The notes beneath the pieces were generated by a model, which ran no database searches, was not told the origin of the DNA, and saw only the letters and a program-made list of their open reading frames with translations. A stretch of 64,000 nucleotides of DNA from a virus. Of this stretch, positions 6,689 to 64,000 are shown piece after piece. A program made the position numbers and the translations under genes. The stretch lies in the IMG/VR virus record IMGVR_UViG_3300045988_113168; one strand, written 5' to 3'. Each line of letters begins with the position of its first letter. Positions within the stretch are counted from its first letter, which is position 1.

Positions 6689-7450
6689 ATGGTTTACATT
6701 ACAGGCGATATTCATGGTGACTTTAATCGGTTTTTAGAATTGGAAAAGTTTTGCCATGAACACAATCTTGGAAAGAATGACTGGATTGTCTGCCTTGGCG
6801 ATGTCGGTTTGAACTATTACGGCAAGGACGACCCTCGCGAATGGAGTATAAAAACTATCGCCGCAGATATTCCTGCAAATCTGTTTTGTATTCATGGCAA
6901 CCACGAGCGCCGCCCGTCTCGTAAGGATGGTTATAGGACAAAGGAAATCAGTGGAGATATTTGTGGTAATGTGTGGTATGACCCACATTATCCAAATCAG
7001 TATTTTGCTATTGATGGCGAAGTCTATCAAATTCTTGCTGATAGGGAAGTATTAAACTGTCTTGTTTGCGGCGGAGCCTATTCTGTAGATAAATATTATC
7101 GGTTGGAACGTGGATATAATTGGTTTCCTGATGAACAGCCGAGTGAGAAGACTAAGAAAAAGATCTGGAATATTACACACGATCCTCAAATCGATGATAT
7201 TGATGTTATGCTCACGCATACCTGTCCATTCCGGTTCATTCCAACTGGATTGTTTATTGGTGGTATTGACCAAAGCACAGTAGACCAGTCAACTGAAATA
7301 TTCTTTGATAATATATACGAATGCTATCCTAACGATTGTAAACCGTTCTGGTATTTTGGTCACTTCCATGGCAATAAATACACTGACGATTATGTAATGC
7401 TTTTTGATGATATTATTAAGTTTGGAGATAAAGTGAAGAGTGATGAGTGA
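6689..7450 (+). CDS. calcineurin-like metallophosphoesterase
   Basis: Motifs GDIHGD, GDVGLN and GNHE in canonical order. Confidence 0.85.
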   Translation: MVYITGDIHGDFNRFLELEKFCHEHNLGKNDWIVCLGDVGLNYYGKDDPREWSIKTIAADIPANLFCIHGNHERRPSRKDGYRTKEISGDICGNVWYDPHYPNQYFAIDGEVYQILADREVLNCLVCGGAYSVDKYYRLERGYNWFPDEQPSEKTKKKIWNITHDPQIDDIDVMLTHTCPFRFIPTGLFIGGIDQSTVDQSTEIFFDNIYECYPNDCKPFWYFGHFHGNKYTDDYVMLFDDIIKFGDKVKSDE

Positions 7451-14300: not shown

Positions 14301-14673
14301 CGGCAACCGTGGCATCATTCGAAAGATTGAAGGCAGTTTTATTCTGGTTGATTTTGACCAGTGGGGCACGATCTTCATTCCTCATTATTTTGGTGGGAAC
14401 AACATCTGGGCAACACTTGAACTCGCTTATGCTTTGAGTTGTCATAAACTGCAAGGTAGCGAAGCTCCGTATGTGATTGTCGGCATGGATAACTCTGCAT
14501 ACTTGATGTTGACGAGGGAATGGCTTTATACGGCCATCACTCGTGCTAAGAAGTATTGTGTGATTTGTGCTGAAACTCATGCTCTTGATCGGGCGGTAAA
14601 GACTTCGAGAGTTCCATACAAGCGGACGTTCTTGAAGGAATTTTTACGGAAAGAATTTTCAGAAAAGCATTGA
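11380..14673 (+). CDS. RecD/RecD2-like SF1 helicase, interrupted by an intein in the Walker A loop
   Basis: GTG start after a GAGGG RBS. HhH-type N-terminal region. Split P-loop: ILTGYGG / TGKSTVV. Motifs ILDETSMV, GDDGQL, SCHKLQGSE and AITRAKK. Confidence 0.85.
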   Translation: MADKKFNENMIRCYIRIKRVFYPKDGKEVEPGGFATFSAEVVKVKQGNPIMSRYSDLRLKGNVPSLDMDKTYSFCGEYVHHEKFGDQYKIVYMNEFQEITDPEEQKSFLHFILTEHQFEMLYEAFDNPYEIIKNGDIKSLCTVSGITEGRAQKIIDAFENNIDNSEAYTKLIEYGLTPSAIGKLVHQYHGADTLVKKIEENPYVLIDDVYGIGWKKADALALNMGLKPNSQFRIEAYVMHFLADRAEEGNSIIPANQTINSCIKELGLDEGDQEVIKRALFHLHDVRETLWWSDDRQEFALTRVWNLENEIAKEIKRLADAPVEPIGRNMDAAIDEAERALGIEYTEEQRDAIKKVCSSNVCILTGYGGCLDAEMEFFNGVQWKKIKDYVKGDKVLQYNENGTTTLVEPEKYVKFKCEYLYHMKNKSGSINQLLSAEHNVVYLTSKNNLAKIPMWELYQRNVKRKSGFNGHFITTFNYDGPGIDLSDADIRLMCAVICDGSFLKDHKSAWCRVNVKKERKKLRMRRLLSESGRYFDEHQWNPKDLEYSNFVFYAPRKEKRFTSYWYNCNHHQLEVICDEILNWDGHVKEGRRKDFSTLIKETADFIQFAFSSCGYRSVVYESNIERHGKMVKEYNVHIVQHSNGKVSLMTKGSKSDIDIVRSSDGYKYCFTVPSHMFLTRYNGRICVTGNTGKSTVVAGVLKVLRGKSFAQTALSGRAAARMQEITGQDGKTIHRLLGYDIENGGFVHDKDNPLDEDIIILDETSMVGAQLFYDLIQAIETGKRFIMIGDDGQLESIGMCNIFKDMLASKVVPVARLTKIHRQAAKSAIITESIKVRNATQLVPYGWAGNEIRGELRDLELDIYKDAGESFSHIINQYRTLYNKVGNDSAKIQIVLPQKLRGSICTYEVNNAIQEIVNPSRGQTEAKISIYGDGKDRVYTLREGDQVIINKNNYELHTYNLKTKKKEDKCPVFNGNRGIIRKIEGSFILVDFDQWGTIFIPHYFGGNNIWATLELAYALSCHKLQGSEAPYVIVGMDNSAYLMLTREWLYTAITRAKKYCVICAETHALDRAVKTSRVPYKRTFLKEFLRKEFSEKH
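12487..13449 (+). mobile_element. intein (321 aa) with a LAGLIDADG-type homing-endonuclease core
   Basis: Begins with Cys (CLDAEMEF, block A). Block B is SAEHNVV. LAGLIDADG-like MCAVICDGSF and ILNWDGHV. Ends ...RICVTGN, followed by a +1 Thr. Removing it restores GYGGTGKST. Confidence 0.8.
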
Positions 14674-14698
14674 CAATTATATGAGTATCCTGTATAAT
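14670..14698 (+). promoter_or_regulatory. consensus sigma-A type promoter
   Basis: TTGACA (14670-14675), a 17-nt spacer ending in TG, then TATAAT (14693-14698). Confidence 0.7.
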
Positions 14699-14834
14699 AT
14701 AGCTATAAAAAGTCTCCACCTCGGAGGCTTAAAATTCTCTCTTTAGCTATATAATACAGGATACGAGGAAGAAATGGCTTGCTCGTAATGGCAAGCCTTT
14801 CTTTATTCATTATAACTATATAACACAGGATACG
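14685..14834. repeat. three copies of a 21-bp operator-like motif GTATCCTGTAT(A/T)ATATAGCTA
   Basis: 14685-14705 and 14744-14764 are inverted copies with 1 mismatch. 14814-14834 is a direct copy of the second with 2-3 mismatches. The first copy overlaps the -10 element. Confidence 0.75.
14776..14807 (+). terminator. rho-independent terminator or attenuator hairpin
   Basis: GGCTTGC - 8-nt loop - GCAAGCC, followed by TTTCTTTATT. Confidence 0.6.
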
Positions 14835-14846
14835 CAAGGAGGCTTT

Positions 14847-35249: not shown

Positions 35250-36416
35250 ATGATAAGACGTAAAGATAATAATGGCAAAGTTTTAAAAGACGGCGAGAGC
35301 CAGAGAAAGGATGGGAGATACCAATATAGATGGACAAACAAACTTGGAAAACGCTCAATAATATACGCCACTTCACTTAAAGAATTGAGAGAAAAAGAAG
35401 CTGAAATCCAAGAAAAACTTAATTTGGGTACAACGTCTACTTCAAAAATCACAGTGTACCAATTAGCAAAAAGACATCTCGAAGAAACAAAACTTACTAT
35501 TAGGCCAAGCAGCTATAAAACAAAATCGCAGAATTTGAAAATCTTTCAGAATCACCTAATTGGGGAAATGAATGCAACTGATATTTTAGTGCGCGATGTA
35601 AAACAATTTGCACGAGAATTGGATAACGAAGGATATTGTTATACAACAATCAGAGATGTCATGTCTTTAGCTAGACCGGCATTTCAAGAAATGTTTGATG
35701 AGAATATAATTCCTAGAAATCCATTCGTTTTTAAATTAAATACAGTTGTCAAATGTGACTCAAAAGAAAAAGAAATATTAACAGAAGAGCAGTATCAAAA
35801 TCTGATCAAGTTCATGAAATCTAGTCGAGTATATAAAAGGCATGTTGGGATGGTGATGCTTTTGCACGAGACAGGACTTCGAGCAGGAGAATTATGCGGG
35901 CTAACAAAAAAGTCATTTGATTTTGATAACAACACTGTTACTATATCTCATCAGATGGTGTACGATGGAAAGAGCGGCGGGCTGTATTTAGCACCTACAA
36001 AAACAGAAAGTGGGATAAGGACTATCCCATTATCTAAAGACGCCATCATTGCTTTTGAAGAAGCGGTAAAACAACGTCCGATTGTAAAAGCAGAGAGAAT
36101 AATAGATGGGCAAGCCGACTTCTTGTTTATAGCAAAAACTGGAAGGCCCTATACGAATAAAAACCTTGTTAGAATTTTTGAAGGACTAATCAAAGCATAT
36201 AATAGTTGCCATGATGAACCATTGCCTGAAGTCACTGCCCACAGTATGCGCCACGAATATTGTACACGGCTTGTCAAAGCCAAGATGGATGTTAAATCGG
36301 TTCAATACCTCATGGGGCATTCGTCGCCCGATATAACCTTGAAAGTGTATACTCATATCTTAAAAGAAGAGACCGAAGCAGAGGCAATCAAACAGTTTAA
36401 TAGGATTGTTTCCTAA
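35250..36416 (+). CDS. int: tyrosine recombinase/integrase, Tn916-Int-like
   Basis: N-terminal RKDGRYQYRWTNKLGKRSIIYATSLKELREKE arm-binding domain. Catalytic R...HSMRHEY...LMGHSSPDITLKVYTH. Confidence 0.95.
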   Translation: MIRRKDNNGKVLKDGESQRKDGRYQYRWTNKLGKRSIIYATSLKELREKEAEIQEKLNLGTTSTSKITVYQLAKRHLEETKLTIRPSSYKTKSQNLKIFQNHLIGEMNATDILVRDVKQFARELDNEGYCYTTIRDVMSLARPAFQEMFDENIIPRNPFVFKLNTVVKCDSKEKEILTEEQYQNLIKFMKSSRVYKRHVGMVMLLHETGLRAGELCGLTKKSFDFDNNTVTISHQMVYDGKSGGLYLAPTKTESGIRTIPLSKDAIIAFEEAVKQRPIVKAERIIDGQADFLFIAKTGRPYTNKNLVRIFEGLIKAYNSCHDEPLPEVTAHSMRHEYCTRLVKAKMDVKSVQYLMGHSSPDITLKVYTHILKEETEAEAIKQFNRIVS

Positions 36417-36720: not shown

Positions 36721-36845
36721 CCGATTTTGAGTCTTAATCGTAAGAGTTCTGATGTGACACAGCAGCCCCGGCGTCCTAGTGACGCCATTACATAAGCAGC
36801 GTTAAAATTGAAAATCGCATTTGAACAACGATATATTCATGATGG

Positions 36846-36871
36846 GCGTGGGAGTAATCCTGCGCCTTTTC
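36846..36871 (+). terminator. rho-independent terminator
   Basis: GCGTGGGA-GTAA-TCCTGCGC (8 bp, GNRA loop), followed by CTTTTCTT. Confidence 0.55.
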
Positions 36872-36900
36872 TTGAATTCTTGTTATCCGTATGATACAAT
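36872..36900 (+). promoter_or_regulatory. promoter of the 3-gene accessory cassette
   Basis: TTGAAT - 17 nt (ending TGA) - TACAAT. The RBS AAGGAG and the ATG at 36923 follow. Confidence 0.6.
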
Positions 36901-36922
36901 TTATACAAAGGAGTGGGGCAAT

Positions 36923-37372
36923 ATGGACATTTATGAAGAACTGCATTCGCGCTATATTCAACTTTATGCTAGCGCCATGGATTTGAATAAAGAATATCAT
37001 ATGAAATTTGATTTGGTCATGAAAAAATATCAAAAAATATGGGATGATGGATTTAGTGTTTTTCCGGCTACAAATATGATGAATTTTATGGTTCCTTCAA
37101 AAAGGAAACCGGAAGATGAGGAGAAAGAGCTCTCGCTTCTTATGGAGTGGACTGCAGATAAAGTGTTTGATATTGTCGTCGAAAATTGGTTAAGCAAACT
37201 TACAAGAGAGCAAGTCGTTTTTATGTTAAACGCGATATCTGAACTCGATTATAATGCTCAGCTTTCTTTTGAAAAATCCCACTCAATCACTCCGAAACAA
37301 ATATTGAACGTTTGGAATAAAACGCACCAAGAAGCTGAAAATATTTACATGATGCCGGAGTTCGAATCATGA
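36923..37372 (+). CDS. hypothetical protein (accessory cassette gene 1)
   Basis: AAGGAG RBS. 149 aa. No recognisable motif. Confidence 0.6.
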   Translation: MDIYEELHSRYIQLYASAMDLNKEYHMKFDLVMKKYQKIWDDGFSVFPATNMMNFMVPSKRKPEDEEKELSLLMEWTADKVFDIVVENWLSKLTREQVVFMLNAISELDYNAQLSFEKSHSITPKQILNVWNKTHQEAENIYMMPEFES

Positions 37373-38403
37373 AAAAAGAAACGTATCTTCCGCTTGATAT
37401 TTTGAAAAAAATTACGGCGCATTACCCTAAAGCATGGGAGCAGATGGAAATGTTTCATAATGCAAACGGGGAACCAAATCTGGGAACGTGGCCTGAATGG
37501 TGCTACGCCCCTATGAGCGCTGCGTTGGCGGTGGCATCTCAAGGATATGATTTAAACAAGCTCCCTATTGATATAAGAATGGAGATAACATCTATAGCTC
37601 AGGCGATATTTGCGTTGGCCCCGTGGCGACTAAGTAAAGAGGTCTATGTTATTGACGAAGATTTAAAAGACCTTTTGTTTGAGCAGGACGGAGAACTCGA
37701 TGTCCCTAACGAAATATTATTGCAGCTTCCGTATCCGTGCTTTTATGTGGAACTTCCAAACACATATTATAGGGCAGATAAAATACATGGGTTCTTTGTG
37801 ACATTAGAATATGATGTTATCAATGGAGATAAAGAATTAAAACCGGTTTTTCTTACTGACAACGGAGATATATTCAGCTATTCCATTCATATTGGAGCAA
37901 AAACAATAGAAGAAAGCGTGGATATGCTTGATAAGCAGGCGCTTGAAAATACAAACGGAGATAAAGAACTGAAACGTTTGGCATTAAGAGCGATGCAGGA
38001 TTCAGCAGAAACAAAAATATTTCTAAAACAAATCCTTCAAGTAATATTATATATTCTTGCACAGAACGCAGAAATCACGCCAAGTTCTGAACAGTCTTTT
38101 ATCACCAAAAGAGGAAAAACACTCAAGGATAAATATTCTGAAATTCGAAAGTGGGATGTTGGCATTCGTGTTGGAGCTGCGATAAGACAGCAAAAAATAC
38201 GCGAGCAGTCTGAGTGGTCGGAACGCAATCAAAGCGGACATAATTCGCCACGTCCTCATATACGTCGCGGTCATTGGCATCATTTTTGGACAGGCCCAAA
38301 AACACAGCCCGAAGAACGAAAACTTATCTTAAAGTGGTTGTCACCCATGACCGTTGCCGCAAATCCAGATGACACACCAATTGTACTTCATAAGGTAAAG
38401 TAA
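37369..38403 (+). CDS. hypothetical protein (accessory cassette gene 2) with C-terminal PRPHIRRGHWHHFWTGP motif
   Basis: ATGA overlap with gene 1. 344 aa with a basic His/Trp-rich C-terminal block. Confidence 0.65.
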   Translation: MKKETYLPLDILKKITAHYPKAWEQMEMFHNANGEPNLGTWPEWCYAPMSAALAVASQGYDLNKLPIDIRMEITSIAQAIFALAPWRLSKEVYVIDEDLKDLLFEQDGELDVPNEILLQLPYPCFYVELPNTYYRADKIHGFFVTLEYDVINGDKELKPVFLTDNGDIFSYSIHIGAKTIEESVDMLDKQALENTNGDKELKRLALRAMQDSAETKIFLKQILQVILYILAQNAEITPSSEQSFITKRGKTLKDKYSEIRKWDVGIRVGAAIRQQKIREQSEWSERNQSGHNSPRPHIRRGHWHHFWTGPKTQPEERKLILKWLSPMTVAANPDDTPIVLHKVK

Positions 38404-38404
38404 A

Positions 38405-38620
38405 ATGAACAATCCAATAATACTTGATATCGCACTCGAATTTATTTTTCACAAGCACAGTGAGGATGAATTCGGTCGCAAAAATAATAAAGCACAGGCT
38501 ATCCGCGAAATGAGCGACGAAGAACTTGCGGCAGCATTGAATGAAATTGTTGCACAACAAGATAACTGTCCCAGAACAATCGAAGGCTGGAAGCAGTGGC
38601 TTCAAGAAGATATAAAATAA
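38405..38620 (+). CDS. hypothetical small protein (accessory cassette gene 3)
   Basis: Starts 2 nt after the gene 2 stop. 71 aa. Confidence 0.55.
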   Translation: MNNPIILDIALEFIFHKHSEDEFGRKNNKAQAIREMSDEELAAALNEIVAQQDNCPRTIEGWKQWLQEDIK

Positions 38621-38629
38621 TCCAACGCT

Positions 38630-38677
38630 AAAAAATGGGGTACCAGTCCAATTAAGGATTGATACCCCATTCGTTTT
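38630..38677. terminator. bidirectional terminator between convergent modules
   Basis: ATGGGGTA (38635-38642) / TACCCCAT (38663-38670), flanked by an A-run and a T-run. Confidence 0.6.
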
Positions 38678-38912
38678 ATATCAGCTCGATATCGCTTGGC
38701 TCAACATAGCCTGACACATTTACTGAGATTGGATACTTACCAATACGACTTTCAAGATTTGTCACTCGATACCGCCCATTGACGAGTTTTCCATCGTAGA
38801 TATACCACTCACCCCGGCGCTTCATTCCGCAGTGAGTCTGGCTGTTTGAAAATAAAATTCCGTCTAATTTAATTTTATCTCCTGCACGCAATGTCTTCTG
38901 GTTGTCCGCCAT
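38676..38912 (-). CDS. small SH3-like cell-wall-binding domain protein, translationally coupled to the endolysin
   Basis: The start ATG shares one nt with the endolysin TGA (TGATG). GDKIKL...GEWYIYDG..VNGRYRVTN...VSGYV resembles lysin C-terminal SH3-type domains. Confidence 0.55.
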   Translation of the reverse strand: MADNQKTLRAGDKIKLDGILFSNSQTHCGMKRRGEWYIYDGKLVNGRYRVTNLESRIGKYPISVNVSGYVEPSDIELI

Positions 38913-39559
38913 CAAAACGAACCCCATGTAGCTGGCCCACAGATACCGTCAGCACTCAAGCCATGCGCCTTTTGCCATTCCATCAGTTTTGTCTTAGTGC
39001 CTACTCCAAAGATACCGTCCGCTTTTACGCCTAGATGTCTCTGCAGCACGGTAACTGTATACGAGATGCCGCCAGTGCAATCTTTCGCGCCCTGACGAAT
39101 CGTAGGCATGATTTTACTCACTGATACATAAGCAGTTCCAGCCTTACTGATCCAGCGAGACTTCCAGCTCCGCACATCAACATGAACAAAGCCTCCTGTT
39201 AGCTGTACTCGACTGTAATAGCCGATGCCGCCCCGCTTCTGGAAATAAGACATGGAGGCCAAATATAGCGCAATCCGAATTGGGTCAACACCTTTGATGG
39301 TAACATCCGCCGCCGTACCCAAACAATGCTGACTGCGAGGACTGCCGCCGATGGAAATATTGTAAGAAGGAGAGCGGTAGCCAGAGTTGATATGGACAGG
39401 CTTACCAAAATGAGCCCGCACCTGTTCAAGAATGTAGACAAGTTCTGTATCGATTAGAACAGTGTCACTGTGGTCAGAGCAGGCGAACTCATAGACGGAA
39501 AAATGAGCTGACACCTTTTTGTTCCAATCTTTCTTCATTGAGTATGTATTTACTGCCAT
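38912..39559 (-). CDS. endolysin: peptidase M15 plus PG_binding_1 domain
   Basis: SGYRSPSYN...SQHCLGTAADV...FVHVD (Zn peptidase M15). C-terminal LQRHLGVKADGIFG...GLSADGICGPATW. GAGGTG RBS. Confidence 0.85.
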   Translation of the reverse strand: MAVNTYSMKKDWNKKVSAHFSVYEFACSDHSDTVLIDTELVYILEQVRAHFGKPVHINSGYRSPSYNISIGGSPRSQHCLGTAADVTIKGVDPIRIALYLASMSYFQKRGGIGYYSRVQLTGGFVHVDVRSWKSRWISKAGTAYVSVSKIMPTIRQGAKDCTGGISYTVTVLQRHLGVKADGIFGVGTKTKLMEWQKAHGLSADGICGPATWGSF

Positions 39560-39569
39560 GCGGCGCACC

Positions 39570-39890
39570 TCAATTCTTCTTCAACTCATTCTCGATTTTC
39601 TCATTCTGAATGTCCAGCTCCTTGACGGCAGCCTCGATCATCATGTCGATAGTCGGAGTAATCTTGACGCCCATCTTTTCAAGAGCAGCGATAACATACT
39701 TCTTCTTGTCAGCTTTCTTGATAACACCAGTTGCGCCGACCTTCTCAGCAGCGCGAACGGTCATCCGGACAAGCTTATAGACGCCAATTTTTTTGAGATA
39801 GGGGATACCATAGACCATAAAAGCAGTACCAGCACCTGCGACGACTAGCTGGGCAATAGTAGCAACAACCTGATTGAAAAAGTCCATCAT
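39570..39890 (-). CDS. holin (LL-H-like)
   Basis: AGGAGG RBS. N-terminal TM helix. ...ITPTIDMMIEAAVKEL resembles the LL-H holin family. Directly upstream of the endolysin. Confidence 0.6.
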   Translation of the reverse strand: MMDFFNQVVATIAQLVVAGAGTAFMVYGIPYLKKIGVYKLVRMTVRAAEKVGATGVIKKADKKKYVIAALEKMGVKITPTIDMMIEAAVKELDIQNEKIENELKKN

Positions 39891-39955
39891 AATATACCTC
39901 CTGATAAAAATAAAAGACCCCGAACACATCGTTCGAGGTCATGAATCACGTGATC

Positions 39956-40459
39956 TTATTCTTTTGGTTTCAAAAAACCATTAGTGCGTAGCATTTCGTC
40001 ATATACGCGCCCCACGTTCTTGATGGCGAAGGGCATCTTGTTGTTCTTGTAGTTGGAATGAGTCTTACAATAATCTTCATACTTCCCAATGACATCAAGG
40101 ATATCATCAAAGTCCTCTTCGGTGTGGCCGAGCCCGCGAACAAGCTCATTATTGAAGCGCAGCACCTGACTACGATAACCGTCAGCTTTGGTTTCTTCAC
40201 CCTTTTCGATGTGGTTATCTAGCTTTTTACGAGTCTCTTCTTGCTCGGAGCGAATATCTTTGAGCTCGGATTTAGTTTCCTTGATCTCGTTCATCACACC
40301 GGCATTCAGGGCGTTTCCAATGTGAGTGGCTACCTAAGACCACGGATTGATCTCGATTTTAGAGACTTGTATCACTGACATAACAACGGCGATCAATCCG
40401 CCGCTCCCGGCCATCACTGAGCCGAGATGATTTAGGAAAAAATTCAATAATTCGTCCAT
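39956..40459 (-). CDS. lysis-cassette membrane protein containing an in-frame TAG (codon 42)
   Basis: ATG at 40459 after a GAGGTG RBS. A 41-codon TM segment, then TAG at 40334-40336, then the same frame continues into the 113-aa ORF 39956..40297. That ORF has no RBS of its own. Confidence 0.6.
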
Positions 40460-40490
40460 ACGATTTTAATCACCTCGATTCTTTTTTGTA

Positions 40491-40519
40491 TTGACAAATT
40501 TTGCACATCATGATATAGT
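40491..40519 (+). promoter_or_regulatory. near-consensus promoter, antisense to the late operon
   Basis: TTGACA - 17 nt (ending TGA) - TATAGT. Confidence 0.65.
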
Positions 40520-40525
40520 AGTGCT

Positions 40526-40630
40526 ACAGCATGATTTACTTTCGTCGAGCAAATTATGTGTTACCTACTCTAATATGTATGTGGGGAGGAGGTCCTTAGC
40601 CGAAAAGCTGAGGGCTTCTTCCTTTTTATT
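40526..40630 (+). ncRNA. candidate ~105-nt antisense small RNA
   Basis: Bounded by the promoter above and a 16-bp hairpin (40585-40622, with G-U pairs that work only on the + strand) followed by TTTTTATT. No SD-led ORF. Confidence 0.5.
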
Positions 40631-40775
40631 CGGACGGTGTGTCTGTTGTACTTTGATTTTGTTTCTGCAGTTCTTCTTTGATGGCGGTCAGTTGTTCATC
40701 GATGCCTTGCAATGCTATTACGATTTGCTGACCAGTCTCATCAAGAAGAAACGGTTTTAATATTTCTTGAGACAT
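40626..40775 (-). CDS. 49-aa coiled-coil protein
   Basis: AAGGAGG RBS. MSQEILKPFLLDETGQQIVIALQGIDEQLTAIKEELQKQ... Found by hand translation. Confidence 0.5.
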   Translation of the reverse strand: MSQEILKPFLLDETGQQIVIALQGIDEQLTAIKEELQKQNQSTTDTPSE

Positions 40776-40789
40776 GGTTCCTCCTTAGC

Positions 40790-41056
40790 TTAAAGATACT
40801 GATATCCTTCAAACCACAATAAGTACCCCTCATTGCGATTGCTTGTAGAAGATAGTTTTAAAGTATTATTTGAATTATAAGATACACTTGAAGAGCCGAT
40901 ATTTGTTGTACAGCCTTTGACAATTTTAATTTCATTGATTTTGAAAGAAGGACATTTAATAACTATGTAATTTACATAGGAAGGAATAGTAAGATTTATA
41001 GAAATACTATTATTAACATAACCATATCCAGTCCATACTAATTTATCTACAATCAT
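40790..41056 (-). CDS. 88-aa paralog of the C-terminal domain of the upstream fibre gene
   Basis: DKLVWTG / LTIPSYVNYIVIK / FEGYQYL align with GKLVGTG / LVVPSTSDYIKIV / IEAYQYY at the C-terminus of 41072..42580. Confidence 0.6.
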   Translation of the reverse strand: MIVDKLVWTGYGYVNNSISINLTIPSYVNYIVIKCPSFKINEIKIVKGCTTNIGSSSVSYNSNNTLKLSSTSNRNEGYLLWFEGYQYL

Positions 41057-52994: not shown

Positions 52995-55508
52995 TCAAGT
53001 GGTCGATGGGTTATTGTTCTTATTCACGTCAGAGCGTAAATCAGGGAAGTATTGGTCAAGCATCCAGTCTTGATAGAGGTTATATTTACTTTCCTCTCCA
53101 TTGTGGCCTACAATATAGGGGTAATAGGGGAAATAGCGGCTCATTGTCAGAGACATTGTGCCCTCTCCAAGATTGATACTAAAGTTCTTAATGATCCAAT
53201 CGACCGGAGTTTTACTGTTCAAATATTTTGCTGCATATTGAATTTTTTCGTTTACATCGAGCCACGGAACTAACAAAATAGGCACCACCAACCCATCGGT
53301 TAATCGTGCCTTCTTCCATAATTCATATTTAGCAACTTCCATTGCCTTTTCATCCGTGGTATAGTTGTCATAGTCTCCGCCCGAAAGTATTTCATTGCGA
53401 CGACCAATTTTTTCAATTGAGAATTTTGCGTTATACAAATCATCGATATTGTCTGGATCAGTCATGCAGACATATTCAAGATTATCGCAGTTTTCTTCTT
53501 TTTTTTCTGCGGCAAGTTTATCGCCGGTCGGTACAGTATCTACCAATTTGACCATAGCATGAGATTGCTGCTGCCCAATAAAATAGAAGTGCTTTGTATC
53601 AGGGAACCACTGAATGACATAATACTTTCCCGCTTCCATGATAGAAGGTTCCTGCTCAACGTCGTTACCATCAGCGTTAGGAACAGATTTATAAAGCAGG
53701 GAAGTTTTTGTTGTAGTCTTCTGTTCAGTCCCGCCACCTCCATCGGCCTTAACTTCTGTTGTCACAAAATTAACAATTATATTCAAGGTTTTGCTTGTGA
53801 TTTTTGCAGGCATGATAAACGATATATTCGCTTCATCATCAACAGCAAGTTCTTTTACGGTCAGTGTAAGAGAATTCTTTTCGGAAGAATAAGTTGCAGT
53901 CGAAGAATATGCGTCAGAATCGATTGTAGCACCAAACACTTCAACACAGTTTCGAACCGTAGAATAATCCACTGTGGCCGACTCACCATCTGCCGTCACC
54001 AAACTTGCAAATAAATCTGGGTCGAGTACAGGCGGGTCATCAAATCCACTCGGAATTTCGTGACATACGAACACGTCATCATCGAAATACATCTCAAATG
54101 GATAGTAGAGGTCGCGCAACTCAGTCAAAATCTGCCACAAAGTTGTACCAGTCTCATATTCCAAATCGTAGGGAACATTACGCGTCCAATAATCAATCAC
54201 GCATTTGCTAAACTCGCTCATCGGCTGTTCAGTTAAGACTGTTTTAATAACAGGAGCGATACGTGTTCCTTTGTTGATTTTTGTTTTTAGACCAGTCAAC
54301 TGTCCAGCCAAATCGCCATTCAGTCGCGCCACAAGATCTACGCAAGAGCATTGCACTGTATTCGTAGTTGCGTTATATGTAAATCCATTTGACGAGATAG
54401 AAAAGCAACCTTGATTAAACCAGTGAACGTCTTGATTTTTAGAAAATACATTTATACGTTGCACAGATACTTTTTCGAATTCTTTATTGAACGACTCATT
54501 AAGCTTCTTCTTCGCTTGAATAACCTCGTCTTGAACATCGTGCATAGAATAACCAACATAAATGCTAGTAGTACCGTATTCTTCTTGAAGCTCTTTTTCA
54601 CTCCAACCAGCAATAGCACTGACATCAGCAGCAGATAACATACTACCGTTTACTGTTTGTCCCTGTATTGCGGCAATCATATTATGAACCTTAACAGATT
54701 TTCCCCAAAGTGTCATAGAAATACCTGTTTTATCTTTGAGTAGAATCGTAGCCGGATCGGTAGATGTACCAATAACTCTAGAAAGGTACTTGGATATTTC
54801 TGAATTACATAGAGGGATTAAATCACCATCATCAGGTTGAAAAAGAGGAGTGTATGCAATTTGTAGACCATTAAATTTATCGTCGCAACCAAGAACAGTA
54901 GAATAATCTCCTTTATTGATTATGGCTTCCGGGTCTGGTTCAAATGCTTTTTTGAATTCTGAAAAAACTAAAGAACTAAGCCATTTCCCTATGGTATTTA
55001 CAAAAGTCGTCTCACCATTCATCTCCTTTACAAATTTAGAATAGTAAGACATATTGTCATCGTTCCATTCAATCACGCCACGATTGATGTTGTCGATATT
55101 CCCGTATTTTGCATGACCTTCTTGAGTGATTTTTGAAACTAAAGCATTATATTCTGCTTTGGCTTTTTTATATCCAGCAGATTCTTTTGTCTTTTTTTCA
55201 AGTTCTGGGTACGAGAGGGAAGTAGTTTTGGCTCTTCCTTTTAGTCCGATAAAAACACGAACATTTTTGCTTATCCAGTCCTCCTCATCAAAAGCGGAGA
55301 CAACACTCTTTTTGCCGAGATACAACGTAGTATTAAAGGTGCGACGAATGTCTGACTCCGAATCAACACTTACAGTTCCATCAATCGCAATGCCTTCCAA
55401 AGAATCTACAGTTGCGAAATCTTTGTCCAATAAATCAATGCGACAATATATATGAGGAGAATGGCTTTTTAAAAGAGCGAGGTCTTCATCTGTAGGTAAG
55501 TACTTCAT
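52995..55508 (-). CDS. tail-associated/baseplate hub (Tal-like) protein
   Basis: 837 aa directly after the Dit-like gene. The N-terminal IDGTVSVDSESDIRRTFNTTL pattern is typical of sipho tail-tip proteins. Confidence 0.6.
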   Translation of the reverse strand: MKYLPTDEDLALLKSHSPHIYCRIDLLDKDFATVDSLEGIAIDGTVSVDSESDIRRTFNTTLYLGKKSVVSAFDEEDWISKNVRVFIGLKGRAKTTSLSYPELEKKTKESAGYKKAKAEYNALVSKITQEGHAKYGNIDNINRGVIEWNDDNMSYYSKFVKEMNGETTFVNTIGKWLSSLVFSEFKKAFEPDPEAIINKGDYSTVLGCDDKFNGLQIAYTPLFQPDDGDLIPLCNSEISKYLSRVIGTSTDPATILLKDKTGISMTLWGKSVKVHNMIAAIQGQTVNGSMLSAADVSAIAGWSEKELQEEYGTTSIYVGYSMHDVQDEVIQAKKKLNESFNKEFEKVSVQRINVFSKNQDVHWFNQGCFSISSNGFTYNATTNTVQCSCVDLVARLNGDLAGQLTGLKTKINKGTRIAPVIKTVLTEQPMSEFSKCVIDYWTRNVPYDLEYETGTTLWQILTELRDLYYPFEMYFDDDVFVCHEIPSGFDDPPVLDPDLFASLVTADGESATVDYSTVRNCVEVFGATIDSDAYSSTATYSSEKNSLTLTVKELAVDDEANISFIMPAKITSKTLNIIVNFVTTEVKADGGGGTEQKTTTKTSLLYKSVPNADGNDVEQEPSIMEAGKYYVIQWFPDTKHFYFIGQQQSHAMVKLVDTVPTGDKLAAEKKEENCDNLEYVCMTDPDNIDDLYNAKFSIEKIGRRNEILSGGDYDNYTTDEKAMEVAKYELWKKARLTDGLVVPILLVPWLDVNEKIQYAAKYLNSKTPVDWIIKNFSINLGEGTMSLTMSRYFPYYPYIVGHNGEESKYNLYQDWMLDQYFPDLRSDVNKNNNPSTT

Positions 55509-56167
55509 GTTGTACCTCCTACCGGCAAATATTCGCTCAGTCCATTACTGTACATATCATCTTCACTCTCAATAGATCCGATTTCGACAAAGTTGAAACT
55601 CAACGTACCTTTGTCATAATGCTCAGAACAACTTGTAGTAACACTGCCATTTACTCCAATTAGCCACTCACGCCCATCAAACATTTTGAGAACTTTTGCG
55701 TCTCCGTTAGTAAGCCATGCTGAGATTTCTTTACGGTAATCATTTCCACCGTCAACATCAAATTCATCTTGAGCCATATCGAATTCAATACCAACACCCG
55801 AAAAATCACCAGAATAATAGTTCGCTTCATTGCCAAAATACAGATAGGGGTATTTGCTACTCATGGTTTCGACGATAGAAGCAGTGCGTTTTAGCTCAAC
55901 ACTGTCTACCTTTGGCTCAAGAAGAATGTGATAAGATGTTTCTCCATCTGTAATAATTGCGCCATCAAATTCACTGACTACTATCTTTTTAACATAGCCC
56001 TTTTCAATAGTATTAACAACAGGAGACACAGCATATTCATAAGGCTGTTTGCGCCCAGCCGCATACCAGTCAGTGTGTTCCATTATGACATATCCGGTAT
56101 TTTCTGAATGCAATTTTATTCCATGAATAGTATCAGAGAATGGTTTAGTGACGTTCTTTTCGGGCAT
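55505..56167 (-). CDS. distal tail protein (Dit-like); possibly the C-terminal part of a TAG-readthrough fusion
   Basis: YRKEISAWLTNGDAKVLKMFDGREWLIGVNG is Dit-like. Same frame as 56276..57361, with only two TAGs between them. Confidence 0.6.
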   Translation of the reverse strand: MPEKNVTKPFSDTIHGIKLHSENTGYVIMEHTDWYAAGRKQPYEYAVSPVVNTIEKGYVKKIVVSEFDGAIITDGETSYHILLEPKVDSVELKRTASIVETMSSKYPYLYFGNEANYYSGDFSGVGIEFDMAQDEFDVDGGNDYRKEISAWLTNGDAKVLKMFDGREWLIGVNGSVTTSCSEHYDKGTLSFNFVEIGSIESEDDMYSNGLSEYLPVGGTT

Positions 56168-56275
56168 GACGCTAATCCTAAAATACGCGATAATATTCTT
56201 ATAATTTACATTCCAAGATGATTTATTCTAAGTTCCAACATTTCGTGTCTTGTTAAGCATTGCAGAAATCGATTT

Positions 56276-57361
56276 CTATAGGTTTTTCATAAAAGAACTA
56301 AGAGAGGAAAAACGATCCAATGCTTCATTATAGGTATATTCTTTTCCGTCGGAATAATATTTAATGCTTGTTTCCGTATAGCCTAAGAATTTTTGGTTTT
56401 TGTCATATGCTATAATTCTAGCAATATATCCATCAGCCGATATTTCGACTGACTTTAAATCACTTGCCGGGATTAGATTAGTGCTCATTGAGATGTTATC
56501 TGTAGTAAATACTCCACTTTGACTAACATAGCCATTTGACCAGTTGGGCAATAAGAGCAAATCGTTTGATAAATCAACTTGTTTTTCATAAATAGTCATC
56601 CATGTGGTATCTAAAGGCTTTTTGCGCTTAAACCGAAGATGAGTAATGTCACTCTTCACATTGGCTGGATATTTTGCAAAAAGGTTAATACAACCACGCC
56701 ATTTATCGTTTCCTGCATCAAAAATTACTCCATCAATTTGTTCACTATATTTCGTCTTAAACTGTTTGAACCCAGTATCAAGCTGGTAACCTCCAATTGA
56801 TTCTGCTTTAGCACGAACATAATAAACGCTATTATTGTCAAGGCCATCAACATAAAAACTCTTCATAGAGTCACGGTGATAAAAACATTGTGACTTTTTG
56901 ATTTCGTTTTTATTAGAGTCATAAAGATAATATTCATATCTATTGATAACTTCACCCTCAGCCGTTTTGTAGGTATAATCACAATCAAAAGAGTATGAAG
57001 GTGTAAAGATAATTTTAGAAGAGGAAATGTCGGAGAATGCCCTGAATTTAATGGAAGGTTTCTCGTGACAATAAAACAGAATCTTGTCACTATATTCGCT
57101 GAAAGTGTTCGTACCAGTTAATCTGCAACGAATCATGATATAATAAGGGTCATGCTGATTTACAAGGACCCCACCTTTAATTACAAATTGTCGAGCTAGG
57201 CCAGTTCCAGTGGGAGCTACTGTGCCAAATTTATAAACAGTGCTATCTTTTGACTTGAAGACGATATAGGCAACTAAGTCAATATCGGCATATGCTCCGA
57301 ACTGGAATGAAGCGTCTTCGTTAGCACTAAATACATTGATTTTTGATAGAATTGGTTTCAC
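56276..57361 (-). CDS. tail protein with beta-sandwich repeats; ends in TAG
   Basis: GTG start after a GGAGGTG RBS. The terminator codon at 56276-56278 is TAG. Confidence 0.6.
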   Translation of the reverse strand: MKPILSKINVFSANEDASFQFGAYADIDLVAYIVFKSKDSTVYKFGTVAPTGTGLARQFVIKGGVLVNQHDPYYIMIRCRLTGTNTFSEYSDKILFYCHEKPSIKFRAFSDISSSKIIFTPSYSFDCDYTYKTAEGEVINRYEYYLYDSNKNEIKKSQCFYHRDSMKSFYVDGLDNNSVYYVRAKAESIGGYQLDTGFKQFKTKYSEQIDGVIFDAGNDKWRGCINLFAKYPANVKSDITHLRFKRKKPLDTTWMTIYEKQVDLSNDLLLLPNWSNGYVSQSGVFTTDNISMSTNLIPASDLKSVEISADGYIARIIAYDKNQKFLGYTETSIKYYSDGKEYTYNEALDRFSSLSSFMKNL

Positions 57362-58759: not shown

Positions 58760-61700
58760 TTAATTTCGCTTACTCATTTTTTGAGAAAGTTTGTTGGGAA
58801 GATTGCGGACAATTTCGTTTGCCAAATCTTCTGCTCCACCAACAGGGTTCTGAATAACAATATCTCCAATGGAAATATCAATATTAGAACCGCCGTTAGA
58901 AGATAGTGAAGCCGTTCCGTACTTAGACATCTGATCCTGGAACCAAGCATCTGGATTGCCACCCATCTCGAAGAGACGAGAAGTAATATCTGCAGGAACG
59001 ACTCCATCGCCGGTTTCAAGATAAGTATAACGTCCAGCTTGCGGTTGACGAACCAGAAGCTCAGAACCTTGCTCGTCAACATTATACTTGCCGGATTTTT
59101 GAATGCTTCGAGAACCAGAAGCTTTTTTACCAGTGATTTTTTCTTTAATTTTGTCAACAAAACTCTTTTTCTCAGAAGAACTACTGGAACTATTAGAAGA
59201 TTTGCTAGACGAAGTAGAAGAACTCTTGTCTTTATCCCGAGAACTACTAGAAGAACTACTCTTACCCGTAACTGCATTATAAGCACTCTGAACGCCGTTC
59301 TTAATACTACTAACAATATTAGAACCAGTCTTCCATGCAGAAGAATTAGTGATTTTATCTTTGGTGGAACTTATAGCATTGTTTACCTTACTTCCTACCG
59401 TAGAGTTGTCCCATTTCTCTTTGACATTAGAAGCAATTTCTTTAGTCGTAGTTACTAATCCACTGACAGCGTTGTTTACTTTGCCGCCGAGCCAAGAATT
59501 GTTCCATGCGTTTTTTGCACTACTAACTGCGTTGCTTCCAACTTCATAGATGTCTTTACCAAGCTCTAACAAGCTCTTACCGCCAGAAACAGTCGTGGGA
59601 GTACCACTGCCGCCACCAGAAGACAAACTACTCGAAGATGTGGAACTATTGCTGGTAGTATTTTTGGTAGTAGGAGTTGTCTGACCTTTATCGTACAGAT
59701 CGTTTCCAATCGTACCAAAACTATCACGAATAGAAGAAATAGTGTTATCGCAACTCTTAGTGATGCTATCATAAGCTTTCCCCATGACCCACGTAATATT
59801 TTCACTAAGATCGATAGCACCGGGCTCAACATTCTTCCAGGCATTTGCCATTTGGTCAGGGAGAACTTTATTCAAAGTCTCTTCACTCTTGGATTCGATT
59901 GTACTATATGCGCCATTGATTGTGCTTTGAGTATTATCGGCCAAGTCACGGACACCGCTTTCGGCCATGCCCCAGCTGCTATCGAAACAAGCTCGCATAT
60001 CATAGAGCATCTTTTCGGTATCACCGGTGGTATCAGCCCAAGCTTTAGAAATAGTAGACTCCGTTTTAGCACTCAGGTTGCGGATACCACCACCACACTG
60101 ATTCCAACTATTCTTCATCTTACTAGAGATGGAATCCATTGCATTAGAACAGCTATCTTTCATAGAATTGAAAGAGTTCGCCATTTTATTAGCGTTAGAC
60201 TCACTCATCTCGTCAGTCATAGATGCCATTTTGTTAAAACCAGCAGTATATGTGTTTTGCATTGACTGGAACAGTTTTTTCGTGATACCCTCGACCTGTT
60301 CTGCGTTCAGTGCGGTATTGTCTCCGATAGCGGCATAGGTATCTTTAACCAGCTTCTGCATATTGCTATACATTTCTTTACTGGTTGCATCAATCTGATC
60401 GTCGCTCAAACCAACCTCTTTTGCCATATCCTTCCATGTCTTCTCAAACTGAGATTTCATAGAATCAAGCTGGGCAAGTGTGTTGGATTTGGAAGAAGAA
60501 ATGAGATTGTCAAGAGGATTACCTGTACTACTATTACCAAAGCCAAAGAATTTACTAATTGAATCCTTTATTAAGCTTCCGCTATTTATTAAGCCTCCGC
60601 CGTTTATTACGCTTCCGATATTCTTTATCTTATCAAACCATTTCGAAATCGAAGAGTTTTGACCAGAAGAGTTTATAGTGGACTTGGTTTTATCTGCGAA
60701 TGTAGTAAACTTTAAATTCAACCCGCCTAGAGTCTTAACGCTCTTTGAAAGCAGCGTAGGAATAAGGCCGGTCTTATTATCATCACGAATATCGTCAACG
60801 GCCTCAACTACTTCATCAACTTTAGAGTCAATGGCAGTGTTTTTGCGAGCTTGAGGCGCAGAAGTAATAGTCGTATATCCGCTGGAAGCAGCAGAGTTGC
60901 GAGAGCTAGGTATTTTAGAGGCTACGTTCTTGACCCAGCCGATAGGATTCTTGGCGATTCCCATTAAAGTCGCGGTTTGTTTTGCGGGGATAACTCCGTC
61001 ACCTTTTTCGAGTTGAGTCAGGCGTCCCTTCTCGGGGGAGCGAACGATTATCTCTTCGCCTTCCTCATCGACATTATAAGTACCAGCCTTTTCGACTTTC
61101 TTAGTACCTTTAGCAAATCCAAACAGTTTACCAACCCAGCGAATTGGAGCAGTCACAATGTGTCCGATTGTACCAAGTAAGCCGCGTTTCTTTGTACCAT
61201 CGCTAGATGTGCCACCAAACAAGAATTTTCCAATGCCACTAACGGCTTTAGTGATCGTTTTGCCAATACTCTTAACTATTTTACCAAGAGTTTTGCCAAT
61301 ACCAGTTACAGCTTTCCCGATAGTGGAACCGATTTTTGCGAGACCGTTTGTAAATGAGCCGCCACCGATTGCACTGACAGCAAGCGTGCCGCCAAGGAGA
61401 ATCGTACCGATGACAGGAATATGACTGACTGCAGCCGCAATAGTTCCAGCGACACCAGTACCACCTGCAGTACCTACAGCGGCAGTTACCGTTCGACCAA
61501 TTCCTTTGAAAATACCAGCAATACCAGAAAACAGCTTGGTTCCACCCAATGTAGTACCGATGCCACCGAAAATTGAGCCAAGCCCACCAACCGCTTTTTG
61601 GGCAATAGATGCGACTCCACTGAATCCCTTCTGGAAGATTGACATTAGACCGCCACTGCCAGAGAAAATTCCCTGTGCTGCAGAGACTACAGTCGTTTTT

Positions 61701-64000
61701 ACATTGCCAAGAGATTTTACAATAGCCTGTCCTAGTTTAGAAATCTAACTAGTGCTCTCTCCAAGGAACCCTTTTGCTGCAGCGTACTTATTAGAGCCTC
61801 CAACGCCAAGGAAGCTCTTTCCTGCGTCCAAGAGGCGTCCCCAGAATCCTTTACCAGAACTCTTATCAGAGAACGTACCAACCGCACGCTGCAGACGATT
61901 CTACAGACCCGTAATTCCACCGTTCTGAGTAGAACCATTCAGATTGCCAAGCACGTCTCCGAGCTTAGTCAGTGTATCAATCAGTGTCTCAAGCTTGGTG
62001 ATAACATTAGAAACATTAGTTGCTCGCTGGACCGCCTTCATATTGGAGACAACAGAGGCCATAAATCCATCGTAGTGACCTTCCATCTCTGCAAAAGTCA
62101 TAGCCTCGAACTGAGACGTATATTTCAGTTTCTTCTGATAGTCGTCCCAGCTTGTGCCAATAAGGTTAGTGGCTTCCTGAACCTTATCTTTGAGCTTGTT
62201 CAGCCGGTCGATTTCTTCCTGTTTCTTATACTCACGGCGTTTGCTGTTGAGGTCACTCTGAGCGTCACGAACTGTACTTGCATCAGCCTCCCACTCGTAA
62301 CCATTCTCGCCATAGACGCGAGTGGTCTTATTGGCCTGTGCTTTCGCGAGAGCATCCTCGGCTTTTTGCAGTTCAATCGCACGCTCTTGAGCATCATTCT
62401 GCTCATTCAGCGCGTCGATACGTTTGTCGATAACATCAATCCATGCATCACCCTGAATCTTCAGGTCGTTGGACTTTTTATCATTGAGCTTATTGAAAAT
62501 ATCAAGCAGTGAAGAGAAAAGGTCTTTAAGGTTAGAGATGACAGACTGTAACTTTTGAGCCTCAGTACCCATCCCCTTCATATGGTCGGTAACATCCCAA
62601 GTACCATTTGCTACCTTTTCAAGAATTTCGGCGTAACGATCTCCGAGGTCAGTACCCTTATATGTTTCTGCAAGGACTTTTAGCTGCTCAATGTAAAGGT
62701 CTCTAAAGGCTTCCTTGTTAAAGACGAGTTTCCCGCCTTCTTCTTTAAGGCAAGCCGCATACTTTGGATTAAGAGACATATACTTCTGGATGGTATCTTG
62801 ACTTAATTCTCCATAAGCGTTATACTCATCTACAATATCAAACAAATCGTTGAATGCACTCTGGTAGTCATCCATTGAATTATTGATTTTGCTAAGAGTA
62901 CTTCCGATTCCGTTAATATAATCCTCAATGCTGAGTGCATTGCTTGCAATCTTATTCTTTGCATCTTCAAAGCCCTTGGCAAGATATGTTCCAGCGGCTC
63001 CGCCAGTCTCCTTACAAGCTGCAATCATCTTGTCGAGACTATCAAGGAACATATCCTTAAAAGCGTCGCTGTTGTAATCAATATCTCCAGTCTCGGGATT
63101 CAATGCCCCAGCGTACTTGTCATTCGTAAACAAGTCTGTGTTATCATATAGGTCACGAATTGCCTGATACTTTTTCTCAACATCGTCAGAATCTAGCAGT
63201 CCAAACGGATTGTCAATCTTGTTTTTGCTAACATCGGACAGCCCAGAGAATGCGGATTTTATAGCGTCTGTCTTTTCTTTGGCATCTGCCATCGCGGTGC
63301 CGTAGCCCTTGATGGCATCAGTTAACTGCTCAAAAGAAATGGTTTCGGAATCGACACTAGAGTTCAACCAGTCAAGAATCTTCTTCATCTCGCCAGCAGA
63401 CTTGCCACCATCATTAGCTGCATTCGCTTCCTCAAGCTGCGCTCTGACAAAAGTGCGGAATTTTGCGGTATTAAGTTCAAGTTTTCCATTTTGCTCAGTT
63501 AAGCAAGCAGTAAACTTATCATCAACACCGATTAACGACTTCATGGTGTCTGCACTAATATAGCCATATTGGTTATATTCTTTCATCGCTTTTGTTAAGG
63601 TATCAAATGCGGATGCAATATCAGATACAGACTTCGCGGTAGATTTATTGTTCTTGTTGGTCTTATTTGTCGGGAACCCATTAAGCTGATTTGTTAGTTT
63701 TTGTCCACCCCTTAGAGCAGCGTTCATATTGGTGTACAACAGAGAAAGCTGAGTATTTGTGCGATTCGTGATTTCCTCTAGCTTTGCAGGATCTACACCG
63801 CGTTCACCTGCTTTTTCGACTTCGTTCGCAAACTCTTGAGCCGCGCTATATGTAGCGGTTGCCGCAGTAGCATTTTTCAAAGCGGGGAGAAGATTCTCAA
63901 GAGCAGTCTTTTCGGCCTTGGTTTTCTCTTTTAGGTTATCAGTGCTTTCAGCTGTGTCATCGGCAGTAAGGTTTGCAACCTCATGTTGTGCATTAGAAAG
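58760..64000 (-). CDS. tail tape-measure protein, 5' end off-window, containing two in-frame TAG codons
   Basis: A single frame is open from 64000 to 58760 apart from TAG at 61901-61903 and 61745-61747. Helical N-terminal half, Gly/Lys IGK repeats, a Ser-rich tract, and the duplicated motif YNVDE.G.E..VR.P..GR.T.LE.GDGV.PA. Confidence 0.85.

Follow-up and report, generated by a model that had tools for sequence, protein, structure and literature searches.

We report a compact transcription unit at positions 40491-40630 on the plus strand of a 64,000-nucleotide (nt) stretch of viral DNA (IMG/VR record IMGVR_UViG_3300045988_113168; hereafter, the window). It lies opposite to the late genes of a large temperate gut phage, just upstream of the lysis genes, and comprises a promoter, a predicted RNA and an intrinsic terminator. 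The unit very probably constitutes a functional RNA gene, which is independently transcribed, structured and non-coding, with a product of 90-105 nt. It was found as 43 sequence variants in related gut phages of ~125-150 kb, where it falls into four diverged types (A-D). These variants were gathered from IMG/VR contigs, from metagenome matches and from contigs reached via protein homologues. Type A is that of the window, types B1-B3 are represented by L055, L213, L164 and L192, type C by L053 and L054, and type D by L223.

The promoter is of the sigma-70/sigma-A type and spans 40491-40519 (+). It consists of the −35 box TTGACA (40491-40496), a 17-nt spacer that includes the TG of an extended −10 element (40511-40512), and the −10 box TATAGT (40514-40519). 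Between 35 and 46 kb, the number of promoter-like sites is not above that of shuffled sequences (25 vs 26.4 expected), so the promoter match alone proves nothing. In the whole 64-kb window, only the site at 40491 and one other attain the top score of the scan, which stands for 5-6 of 6 matching positions per hexamer, with one additional point for the TG. The predicted RNA of ~105 nt runs from 40526 to 40630 (+), where the start at ~40526 is predicted from the −10 box rather than mapped, and the end is taken from a T-run. This T-run completes an intrinsic terminator (40583-40630, +), in which an 18-bp stem (40583-40600 with 40607-40624) closes a 6-nt loop and is followed by TTTTTATT. An earlier reading of this DNA, made from the letters alone (the sequence-only reading), had described the hairpin with 16 bp. 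Our scan, in which the hairpin at 40583-40624 is by far the longest terminator-like site of the region, extends it to 18 bp; the promoter, the spacer with its TG, the hairpin, a 22-codon open reading frame (ORF) and the 166-nt gap that holds them were all found where that reading had placed them.

Six of the 18 pairs in the terminator stem are G·U, four of them within the 16-bp version. In the window, the terminator folds with −28.9 kcal/mol on the plus strand vs −11.8 kcal/mol on the minus strand, and a U-tail is present on the plus strand only. The terminators of the four types, with 3-6 G·U pairs each, show the same asymmetry (−21 to −29 kcal/mol on the plus and −9 to −17 kcal/mol on the minus strand), which amounts to an advantage of 7-17 kcal/mol for the plus strand. 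Strand-wise folding thus bears out the earlier suggestion of a strand-specific terminator with four G·U pairs in the 16-bp hairpin. The 105-nt RNA as a whole folds with −38.7 kcal/mol (z = −5.3), and none of 200 shuffled sequences was equally stable.

The unit has no coding potential. The 22-codon ATG ORF (40531-40599, +) is not preceded by a Shine-Dalgarno sequence, its start codon has changed to ATA in variants of the L013 type, and it has no counterpart in types B-D. With this ATG lost in some variants, and promoter and terminator kept in four types, the unit is well described as a stand-alone, non-coding element of the plus strand. Rfam 15 returned no match in the whole window at gathering thresholds. 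When 40300-40800 was searched at E-values up to 10, nothing was found inside the predicted RNA on its own strand; the weak matches in this interval were two plus-strand ones of the microRNA type in the flanks and chance matches on the minus strand. The loci of types B, C and D gave no Rfam match at E-values up to 1. In a comparison with the Rfam models of clustered regularly interspaced short palindromic repeats (CRISPR), no direct-repeat model fits the RNA strand, the sole match (E = 4.6) being on the opposite strand over the promoter. ARAGORN detected no transfer RNA (tRNA) or transfer-messenger RNA in the whole window, and an identity of the unit as an amber suppressor is thus not supported.

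At the level of sequence comparison, the combination of promoter, RNA and terminator is not a product of chance, and the decisive evidence is its conservation in relatives. An exact 23-nt core of the RNA is present in 28 IMG/VR contigs, and 28 of 28 loci that were retrieved by the neighbouring protein alone carry the unit. Between types, this protein is 71-78% identical, while the RNAs can hardly be aligned. Every type has the same layout, with TTGACA, a spacer of 16-17 nt, (TGn)TATAxT, a 5' hairpin, a second spacer and a G·U-rich terminator. TTGACA is invariant and TGnTATAxT (TGnTATCAT in type D) occurs in nearly all 43 variants; the extended −10 TG is missing from the type-A variant L123. 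The sequence-only reading had made its case depend on promoter and hairpin being conserved in relatives that share the flanking genes, and there both are kept.

The hairpin variant of the window is unique, as its exact sequence has no match in IMG/VR. A relaxed pattern returned no further type from the same database; one hairpin match (L230) proved to be the leader of a tRNA operon. GTDB yielded only chance matches to promoter plus motif, in unrelated 5' untranslated regions and coding regions. A unit in L109, a metagenome-assembled genome of Clostridia from goat rectum, was judged probably unrelated, with a different fold and a chromosomal context. This small-RNA-like unit (~7200-7370, −) is located between bacterial genes and has an extended −10 promoter and a terminator. 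Its 5' hairpin reads UUUCAUC-GAGCA-GAUGGAA and is followed by two repeated CCGAGGG..CCUCG hairpins, so that the motif is shared but the architecture is not. GenBank phage records, searched for an extension of the genome, provided only two partial, unannotated contigs.

The most informative feature of the RNA is a loop motif in a covarying 5' hairpin (40529-40559, +), which the sequence-only reading had overlooked while rendering the rest of the anatomy correctly. In the window, GCAUGAUUU (40529-40537) pairs with AAAUUAUGU (40551-40559) and encloses a 13-nt loop (40538-40550). When 13 RNAs representing the four types were aligned with MAFFT without guidance, a single block proved invariant, T..TCGAGCA, and this block is located in the hairpin loop. 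In the window it belongs to the 13-nt motif UUUCGUCGAGCAA (40540-40552, +), which occurs once, at its own locus, and includes the invariant core UCGAGCA (40545-40551) and the sequence UUCG (40541-40544), which matches the consensus YUNR. YUNR is a U-turn loop element of many antisense RNAs, as Franch et al. reportedly described in 1999. Types A and C have the motif as UUUCGUCGAGCA, type B has it as UUCAUCGAGCA, and type D as UUUUCGAGCA. The loop core in all types is UUC(R)UCGAGCA, with type D two nucleotides short, and YUNR is represented in every type by UUCG (A, C, D) or UUCA (B). In A and C, the minimum-free-energy fold has the first U of this UUCG paired.

The stems that carry this loop are unrelated in sequence (GCAUGAUUU/AAAUUAUGU in A, AUUGUC/GACAAU in B, GCACU/AGUGU in C and CGAAUCC/GGGUUUG in D), and MAFFT was unable to bring the four into register. 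In an alignment that was padded by hand so that the stems share columns, and is therefore fitted to the structure, 86 of 86 cells of the 5' stem are paired and 7 of 9 pairs are altered on both sides, with types A-D as only four independent lineages. Here, the covariation score is 0.77, vs 0.24 in shuffles, and none of 500 shuffles reaches the observed value. As a control, the partner strand was slid by 1-3 columns, upon which pairing falls to 34-47%. Within type A, single changes that keep the pairs are found at 40529/40559 and 40533/40555 (G·U to A-U or G-C) and at 40535/40553 (U-A to U·G). The terminators of type-A variants show compensatory changes as well, in which A-U alternates with G-C. 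We discarded the motif as a possible late-strand promoter; its distance from a −10-like box varies between 16 and 23 nt, and the scan shows no promoter on the minus strand.

The unit occupies a defined junction. In the window, it fills the 166-nt gap at 40460-40625 between the minus-strand ORFs 40626-40775 and 40334-40459, and all genes that adjoin it are on the opposite strand. On its right, the T-run of the terminator shares bases with the stop codon (40626-40628) of the upstream late ORF, which encodes 49 amino acids (40626-40775, −). On its left, the conserved unit ends at GAGGUG (40471-40476, −), which serves the first gene of the lysis cassette as ribosome-binding site and is separated from the −35 box by 14 nt. 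Conservation across L010 and L020 begins at CACCTCGATTC, and in both loci the left flank is replaced outward from the ribosome-binding site. The right flank of type A exists in two unrelated versions that diverge directly after the T-run, and many type-A loci have another gene in place of the 49-amino-acid ORF. In types B and D, this ORF is absent from the junction, and the upstream neighbour is a gene for a CmpB-like membrane protein. In every type, the unit takes up precisely the interval from the stop codon of a late gene to the ribosome-binding site of the following one, upstream of the holin and endolysin genes. The 49-amino-acid ORF had been called the last ORF of the fibre module; its position is as described, and the fibre label derives from that position, the ORF having no family match. 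A second copy of the unit was not found in the window.

Morons, in Hendrix's definition, are extra units with their own promoter and terminator between genes of the late operon, carried by some relatives and lacking in others, and are likely expressed by the prophage. With both flanks exchanged around an intact unit, and with relatives that lack it, the unit at 40491-40630 is an accessory, moron-like module, here of a clade of large temperate gut phages, that answers to this definition.

As to its function, our tentative preference, held with limited confidence, is for a counter-transcript that opposes the intercistronic leader of the lysis cassette. It would be made by the host polymerase, pair through its YUNR loop and damp the lysis genes. 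As expected of a cis-antisense RNA, the unit has its own promoter and a strand-specific terminator opposite the late operon, conserved in four types. The host sigma-A RNA polymerase would fire the near-consensus extended −10 promoter without the need for a phage factor, and the RNA would thus be present in lysogens and from the start of infection. The G·U-rich terminator would end the plus-strand transcript and, being weak on the opposite strand, would let late transcription pass. By geometry, the predicted RNA would be perfectly complementary, over its full length, to the leader via which the late polycistronic mRNA enters the lysis cassette. This complementarity had been pointed out before and holds; the role in lysis timing or prophage silencing that had been attached to it is one that we infer. 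Pairing would begin at the exposed loop of the 5' hairpin, with its YUNR element UUCR, and would spread to a duplex of ~100 bp. This duplex would be cut by a double-strand-specific RNase, and its length would suit RNase III. Transcription driven head-on by the strong promoter may contribute as well. As a result, less would be expressed from the lysis cistrons when read-through is leaky or early. Massive late transcription would overcome this block, which could extend to superinfecting relatives of the same type. In this model, the lysis genes may be damped in lysogens, early in infection or on superinfecting relatives.

Several points weigh against such a counter-transcript. The RNA itself is predicted. 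Its 5' end (~40526) lies ~50 nt from the ribosome-binding site and overlaps neither this site nor the start codon; starting so far away, the RNA cannot mask the ribosome-binding site directly. The loop of 11 nt is invariant amid diverging stems, spacer and terminator, and pairing in cis works whatever the sequence. On the late strand, the complementary hairpin folds only weakly in type C (−0.7 kcal/mol) and type D (−3.7 kcal/mol), so that a loop-loop kiss is not assured in these types. The position of the unit shifts, as in type C it is found upstream of the 49-amino-acid ORF instead of downstream. Finally, it is absent from distant phages with the same cassette, namely L215 (where the gap measures 42 nt), L217, L219, L220/L221 and L222. 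Because several phages with the same cassette are without the unit, we regard it as an accessory layer and not as core lysis control. L222 has a late-strand terminator at the same junction in place of the unit. After the collagen-like fibre gene and upstream of the cassette, L220, L221 and L222 further encode a reverse transcriptase (RVT_1) together with small accessory ORFs, and these loci look like diversity-generating retroelements.

A pure cis-antisense model does not require an invariant loop, which leaves room for a target in trans or a protein partner. The RNA could therefore be a trans-acting small RNA, whose loop UUC(R)UCGAGCA is a seed for a conserved target in host mRNA or in phage mRNA from outside the window. 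The late operon would then be no more than a convenient place of insertion for a moron that lysogens express. This is the main rival, and we hold it to be possible but rather doubtful. As the only invariant block on a freely changing stem, the loop does resemble a seed, the unit is dispensable and mobile relative to its neighbours, and the phage is temperate. Our target search covered the window and the flanks, i.e. about half of the phage genome, and its outcome is hence weak evidence against a target in trans: no complementary TGCTCGA is conserved in the flanks of any type, and the 13-nt motif has no match with fewer than two mismatches on either strand of the window, besides its own locus. 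With the 93 translation-start regions of the window, the RNA is predicted to form duplexes no better than those of shuffled RNAs (the best reaches −27.3 kcal/mol, with shuffled minima between −24.4 and −35.7 kcal/mol). The two nucleotides missing from the motif in type D also speak against a seed.

A constant loop on a changing stem is also what protein-recognised hairpins look like. The loop might bind a protein of host or phage, such as an RNase, an RNA chaperone or one involved in defence, or the RNA might act as a decoy or anti-defence factor. Anti-defence cargo is close by, as a same-strand operon next to the unit encodes a protein with homologues that bear an AcrVA2-like Pfam match. We nevertheless think this improbable, given that no CRISPR repeat model or other Rfam family fits the RNA strand, that there are no repeats, and that no partner gene accompanies the unit when its flanks are swapped. 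Just as small a chance is given to a model in which transcription itself matters, where a head-on promoter with its own stop forms a roadblock for late read-through and the RNA is a by-product. This would agree with a near-consensus promoter that opposes the late operon ~15-20 nt from the ribosome-binding site in all types, with a terminator that holds counter-transcription to ~100 nt, and with the late-strand terminator of L222, which marks the same junction as a control point; a by-product, on the other hand, would not retain a covarying hairpin with an invariant loop.

Slightly less probable still is an element that acts as DNA (an operator, a cruciform or recombination site, or an origin-associated promoter) or that has no function. 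Recombination breakpoints do fall exactly at both ends of the unit. In addition, types A, B1, B2 and C have a 6-nt copy of the 3' stem arm in the promoter spacer (40491-40537 in the window for promoter and 5' arm), and the 5' arm is thus also part of an inverted repeat across the −10 box. The spacing of this repeat is 17, 13, 13 and 10 nt in A, B1, B2 and C, respectively, unlike that of a conserved operator, and we therefore found the operator unsupported. Type D shows complementarity between its −35/spacer region and the sequence that follows the hairpin. The inverted repeat may be due to chance, or it may be an operator or an alternative fold of the late mRNA. Two observations argue against a DNA element: in all types the promoter and the terminator have an orientation and are specific to one strand, and the G·U pairs make sense only in RNA. 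Least credible of all is a type I antitoxin RNA, whose toxin would be a small, hydrophobic membrane peptide of 41 amino acids (40334-40459, −) if an in-frame TAG stops the next gene: a divergent small RNA just upstream does recall pairs of the tisB/istR type, in which a small RNA is transcribed in this way, but types B1, C and D have TGG and encode proteins of 160-174 amino acids rather than a small peptide while keeping the RNA, L220 has the TAG without the unit, the gene fits a full-length phage family of 168 amino acids, the RNA starts ~50 nt from the ribosome-binding site (40471-40476), points away from it and overlaps neither this site nor the ORF, and there was neither a toxin ORF of under 60 amino acids that always accompanies the RNA nor an overlap or pairing of the RNA with the translation start region or 3' end of such a toxin.

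The in-frame TAG itself (40334-40336, −) is part of a wider pattern in the late genes. Among 62 genes of the window, TAA is used as stop 32 times, TGA 28 times and TAG twice, and both of these TAGs are in-frame junctions. The tape-measure-like ORFs 61901-63880 and 58760-61645 (−) share one frame, with TAG-51 codons-TAG between them (61646-61900). Likewise, the tail ORFs 56276-57361 and 55505-56167 (−) are in one frame, separated by TAG-15 codons-TAG (56168-56275). At the TAG codon of the first lysis gene, L053, L054, L055 and L223 have TGG (Trp), and L164 and L192 have TAG. L220/L221 carry a TAG at the adjacent Trp codon, and in L010/L020 an unrelated gene takes the place of the first lysis gene, again with a transmembrane segment, an in-frame TAG and a coiled coil. 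Because TAG and TGG alternate, L220 has an adjacent TAG and the unrelated gene of L010/L020 is built likewise, the stop after the transmembrane segment looks selected, rather than like the lesion of a pseudogene. This suggests suppression or recoding of TAG in late genes.

We discarded a link between RNA and TAG, as the two occur independently of each other; types with TGG keep the RNA, and L220 has the TAG without it. A bolder model, which we consider unlikely, is that the loop recognises a conserved non-local partner (a host or distal phage RNA, or a protein), and that the RNA would be expressed in lysogeny as a 'lysis lock' or immunity RNA beside the in-frame TAGs. If this were true, the lock and the TAG codons of the late genes would be two independent safety catches on lysis in apparently TAG-recoded temperate gut phages.

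The lysis cassette comes last in a block of minus-strand genes (38676-63880) that also includes tail, tape-measure and fibre-like genes. Its first gene (39956-40459, −) encodes a transmembrane segment and a coiled coil and matches phrog_37604 over the full length. The holin is of the LL-H type (39570-39929, −; PF09682), and the endolysin (38912-39568, −) combines Peptidase_M15_3 with PG_binding_1; an ORF of 83 amino acids also belongs to the cassette. The plus-strand genes (1-38620) encode a DnaE-type polymerase, a RecD2-like helicase, a ligase, RecJ, NrdD and a Tn916-type integrase. Where the two blocks converge (38620-38676), a bidirectional terminator-like hairpin, AAAAAATGGGGTA...TACCCCATTCGTTTT, is located. 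The phage is temperate: an integrase is present, and a type-B relative is found in a 225-kb contig beside a probably bacterial gene of the GDPD family. Beside the cassette of other relatives there is an integrase, a serine recombinase or a CI-like helix-turn-helix protein. The relatives are contigs of 125-150 kb from IMG/VR and from human gut, and the hosts are probably Clostridia.

A plus-strand operon (36821-38620; 35250-36416) converges on the lysis cassette and is adjoined by the Tn916-type integrase. Its protein of 344 amino acids (phrog_6160) had no match in our local copy of Pfam; it is 56% identical to a protein of L213 for which a precomputed Pfam match is AcrVA2-like. In L213, the same operon is the last phage DNA before the probably bacterial GDPD-family gene. 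This operon is likely the prophage end and a moron region.

The window contains a second compact unit, at 14670-14846 (+), between the genes for the RecD2-like helicase and the ligase. Its promoter (14670-14698) is a perfect TTGACA-17-TATAAT, and it further contains a long inverted repeat (GTATCCTGTATAATATAGCTA / TAGCTATATAATACAGGATAC), the second arm of which is directly repeated at the ribosome-binding site of the ligase gene, and a plus-strand terminator near 14775-14810 (GGCTTGC...GCAAGCC followed by a T-run). This unit may be a leader, an attenuator or another small RNA.

To our knowledge, hardly anything has been described of regulatory RNAs in gut Firmicutes phages. The unit at 40491-40630 represents a candidate for a new RNA family with comparative support, positioned where late transcription enters the lysis genes of a temperate phage. 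It can be approached experimentally at clear points, namely its one −10 box, the loop of 11 nt and the stem that covaries. If lysis control or the exclusion of related phages proved true, an RNA-based layer of lysis or immunity would exist in abundant phages of the human gut. If the loop has a target in trans, the unit would be a phage RNA that reprogrammes the host.

The unit fits the phage counter-transcripts and the moron definition, belongs to no curated RNA family and involves no new principle. Antisense RNAs in phage late operons are already known from OOP, sar, STnc6030 and PAK_P4as15. STnc6030 of the Salmonella prophage BTP1 is transcribed antisense within late genes and provides superinfection exclusion of BTP1 (PMC7067206). 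Like the unit described here, it has its own promoter in the late structural/lysis operon, on the opposite strand. Lysogens express STnc6030 at a high level; it targets late mRNA by complementarity and keeps out superinfecting phages of the same type. In contrast to our unit, it is ~786 nt long, overlaps coding sequence (injection and tailspike genes) and has a Gram-negative host. No compact design of hairpin, loop and terminator and no conserved loop has been reported for it, and the sequences are unrelated.

OOP, sar, aQ and PAK_P4as15 are further antisense RNAs of phages (PMC12197685). The lambda OOP RNA shares with our unit a short length (77 nt in OOP), a constitutive promoter of its own, an intrinsic terminator and an orientation against a major phage operon. 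Its duplex with the sense mRNA is cut by RNase III, and P22 sar and lambda aQ belong to the same class. OOP differs in that it overlaps the 3' end of cII and serves the lysis-lysogeny decision, whereas the RNA predicted here covers an intercistronic leader only; there is no homology between the two. PAK_P4as15 of the Pseudomonas phage PAK_P4 is antisense at the endolysin gene, where a delay of lysis has been proposed as its role; a close relative lacks it. Its phage, unlike ours, is virulent, and the RNA overlaps the endolysin gene as such. As for our unit, the function is only a proposal.

In design, the RNA also resembles the plasmid-borne CopA, RNAI and Inc RNA, which are stem-loop RNAs of ~60-110 nt with a constitutive promoter and recognition through a U-turn loop. 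In plasmid counter-transcripts, loop sequences such as UUGGCG are conserved and the stems are variable. These RNAs control replication, and loop-loop kissing has been demonstrated for them, whereas it is only proposed for our unit. Classical morons, finally, encode proteins, whereas the moron-like unit at 40491-40630 would encode an RNA.

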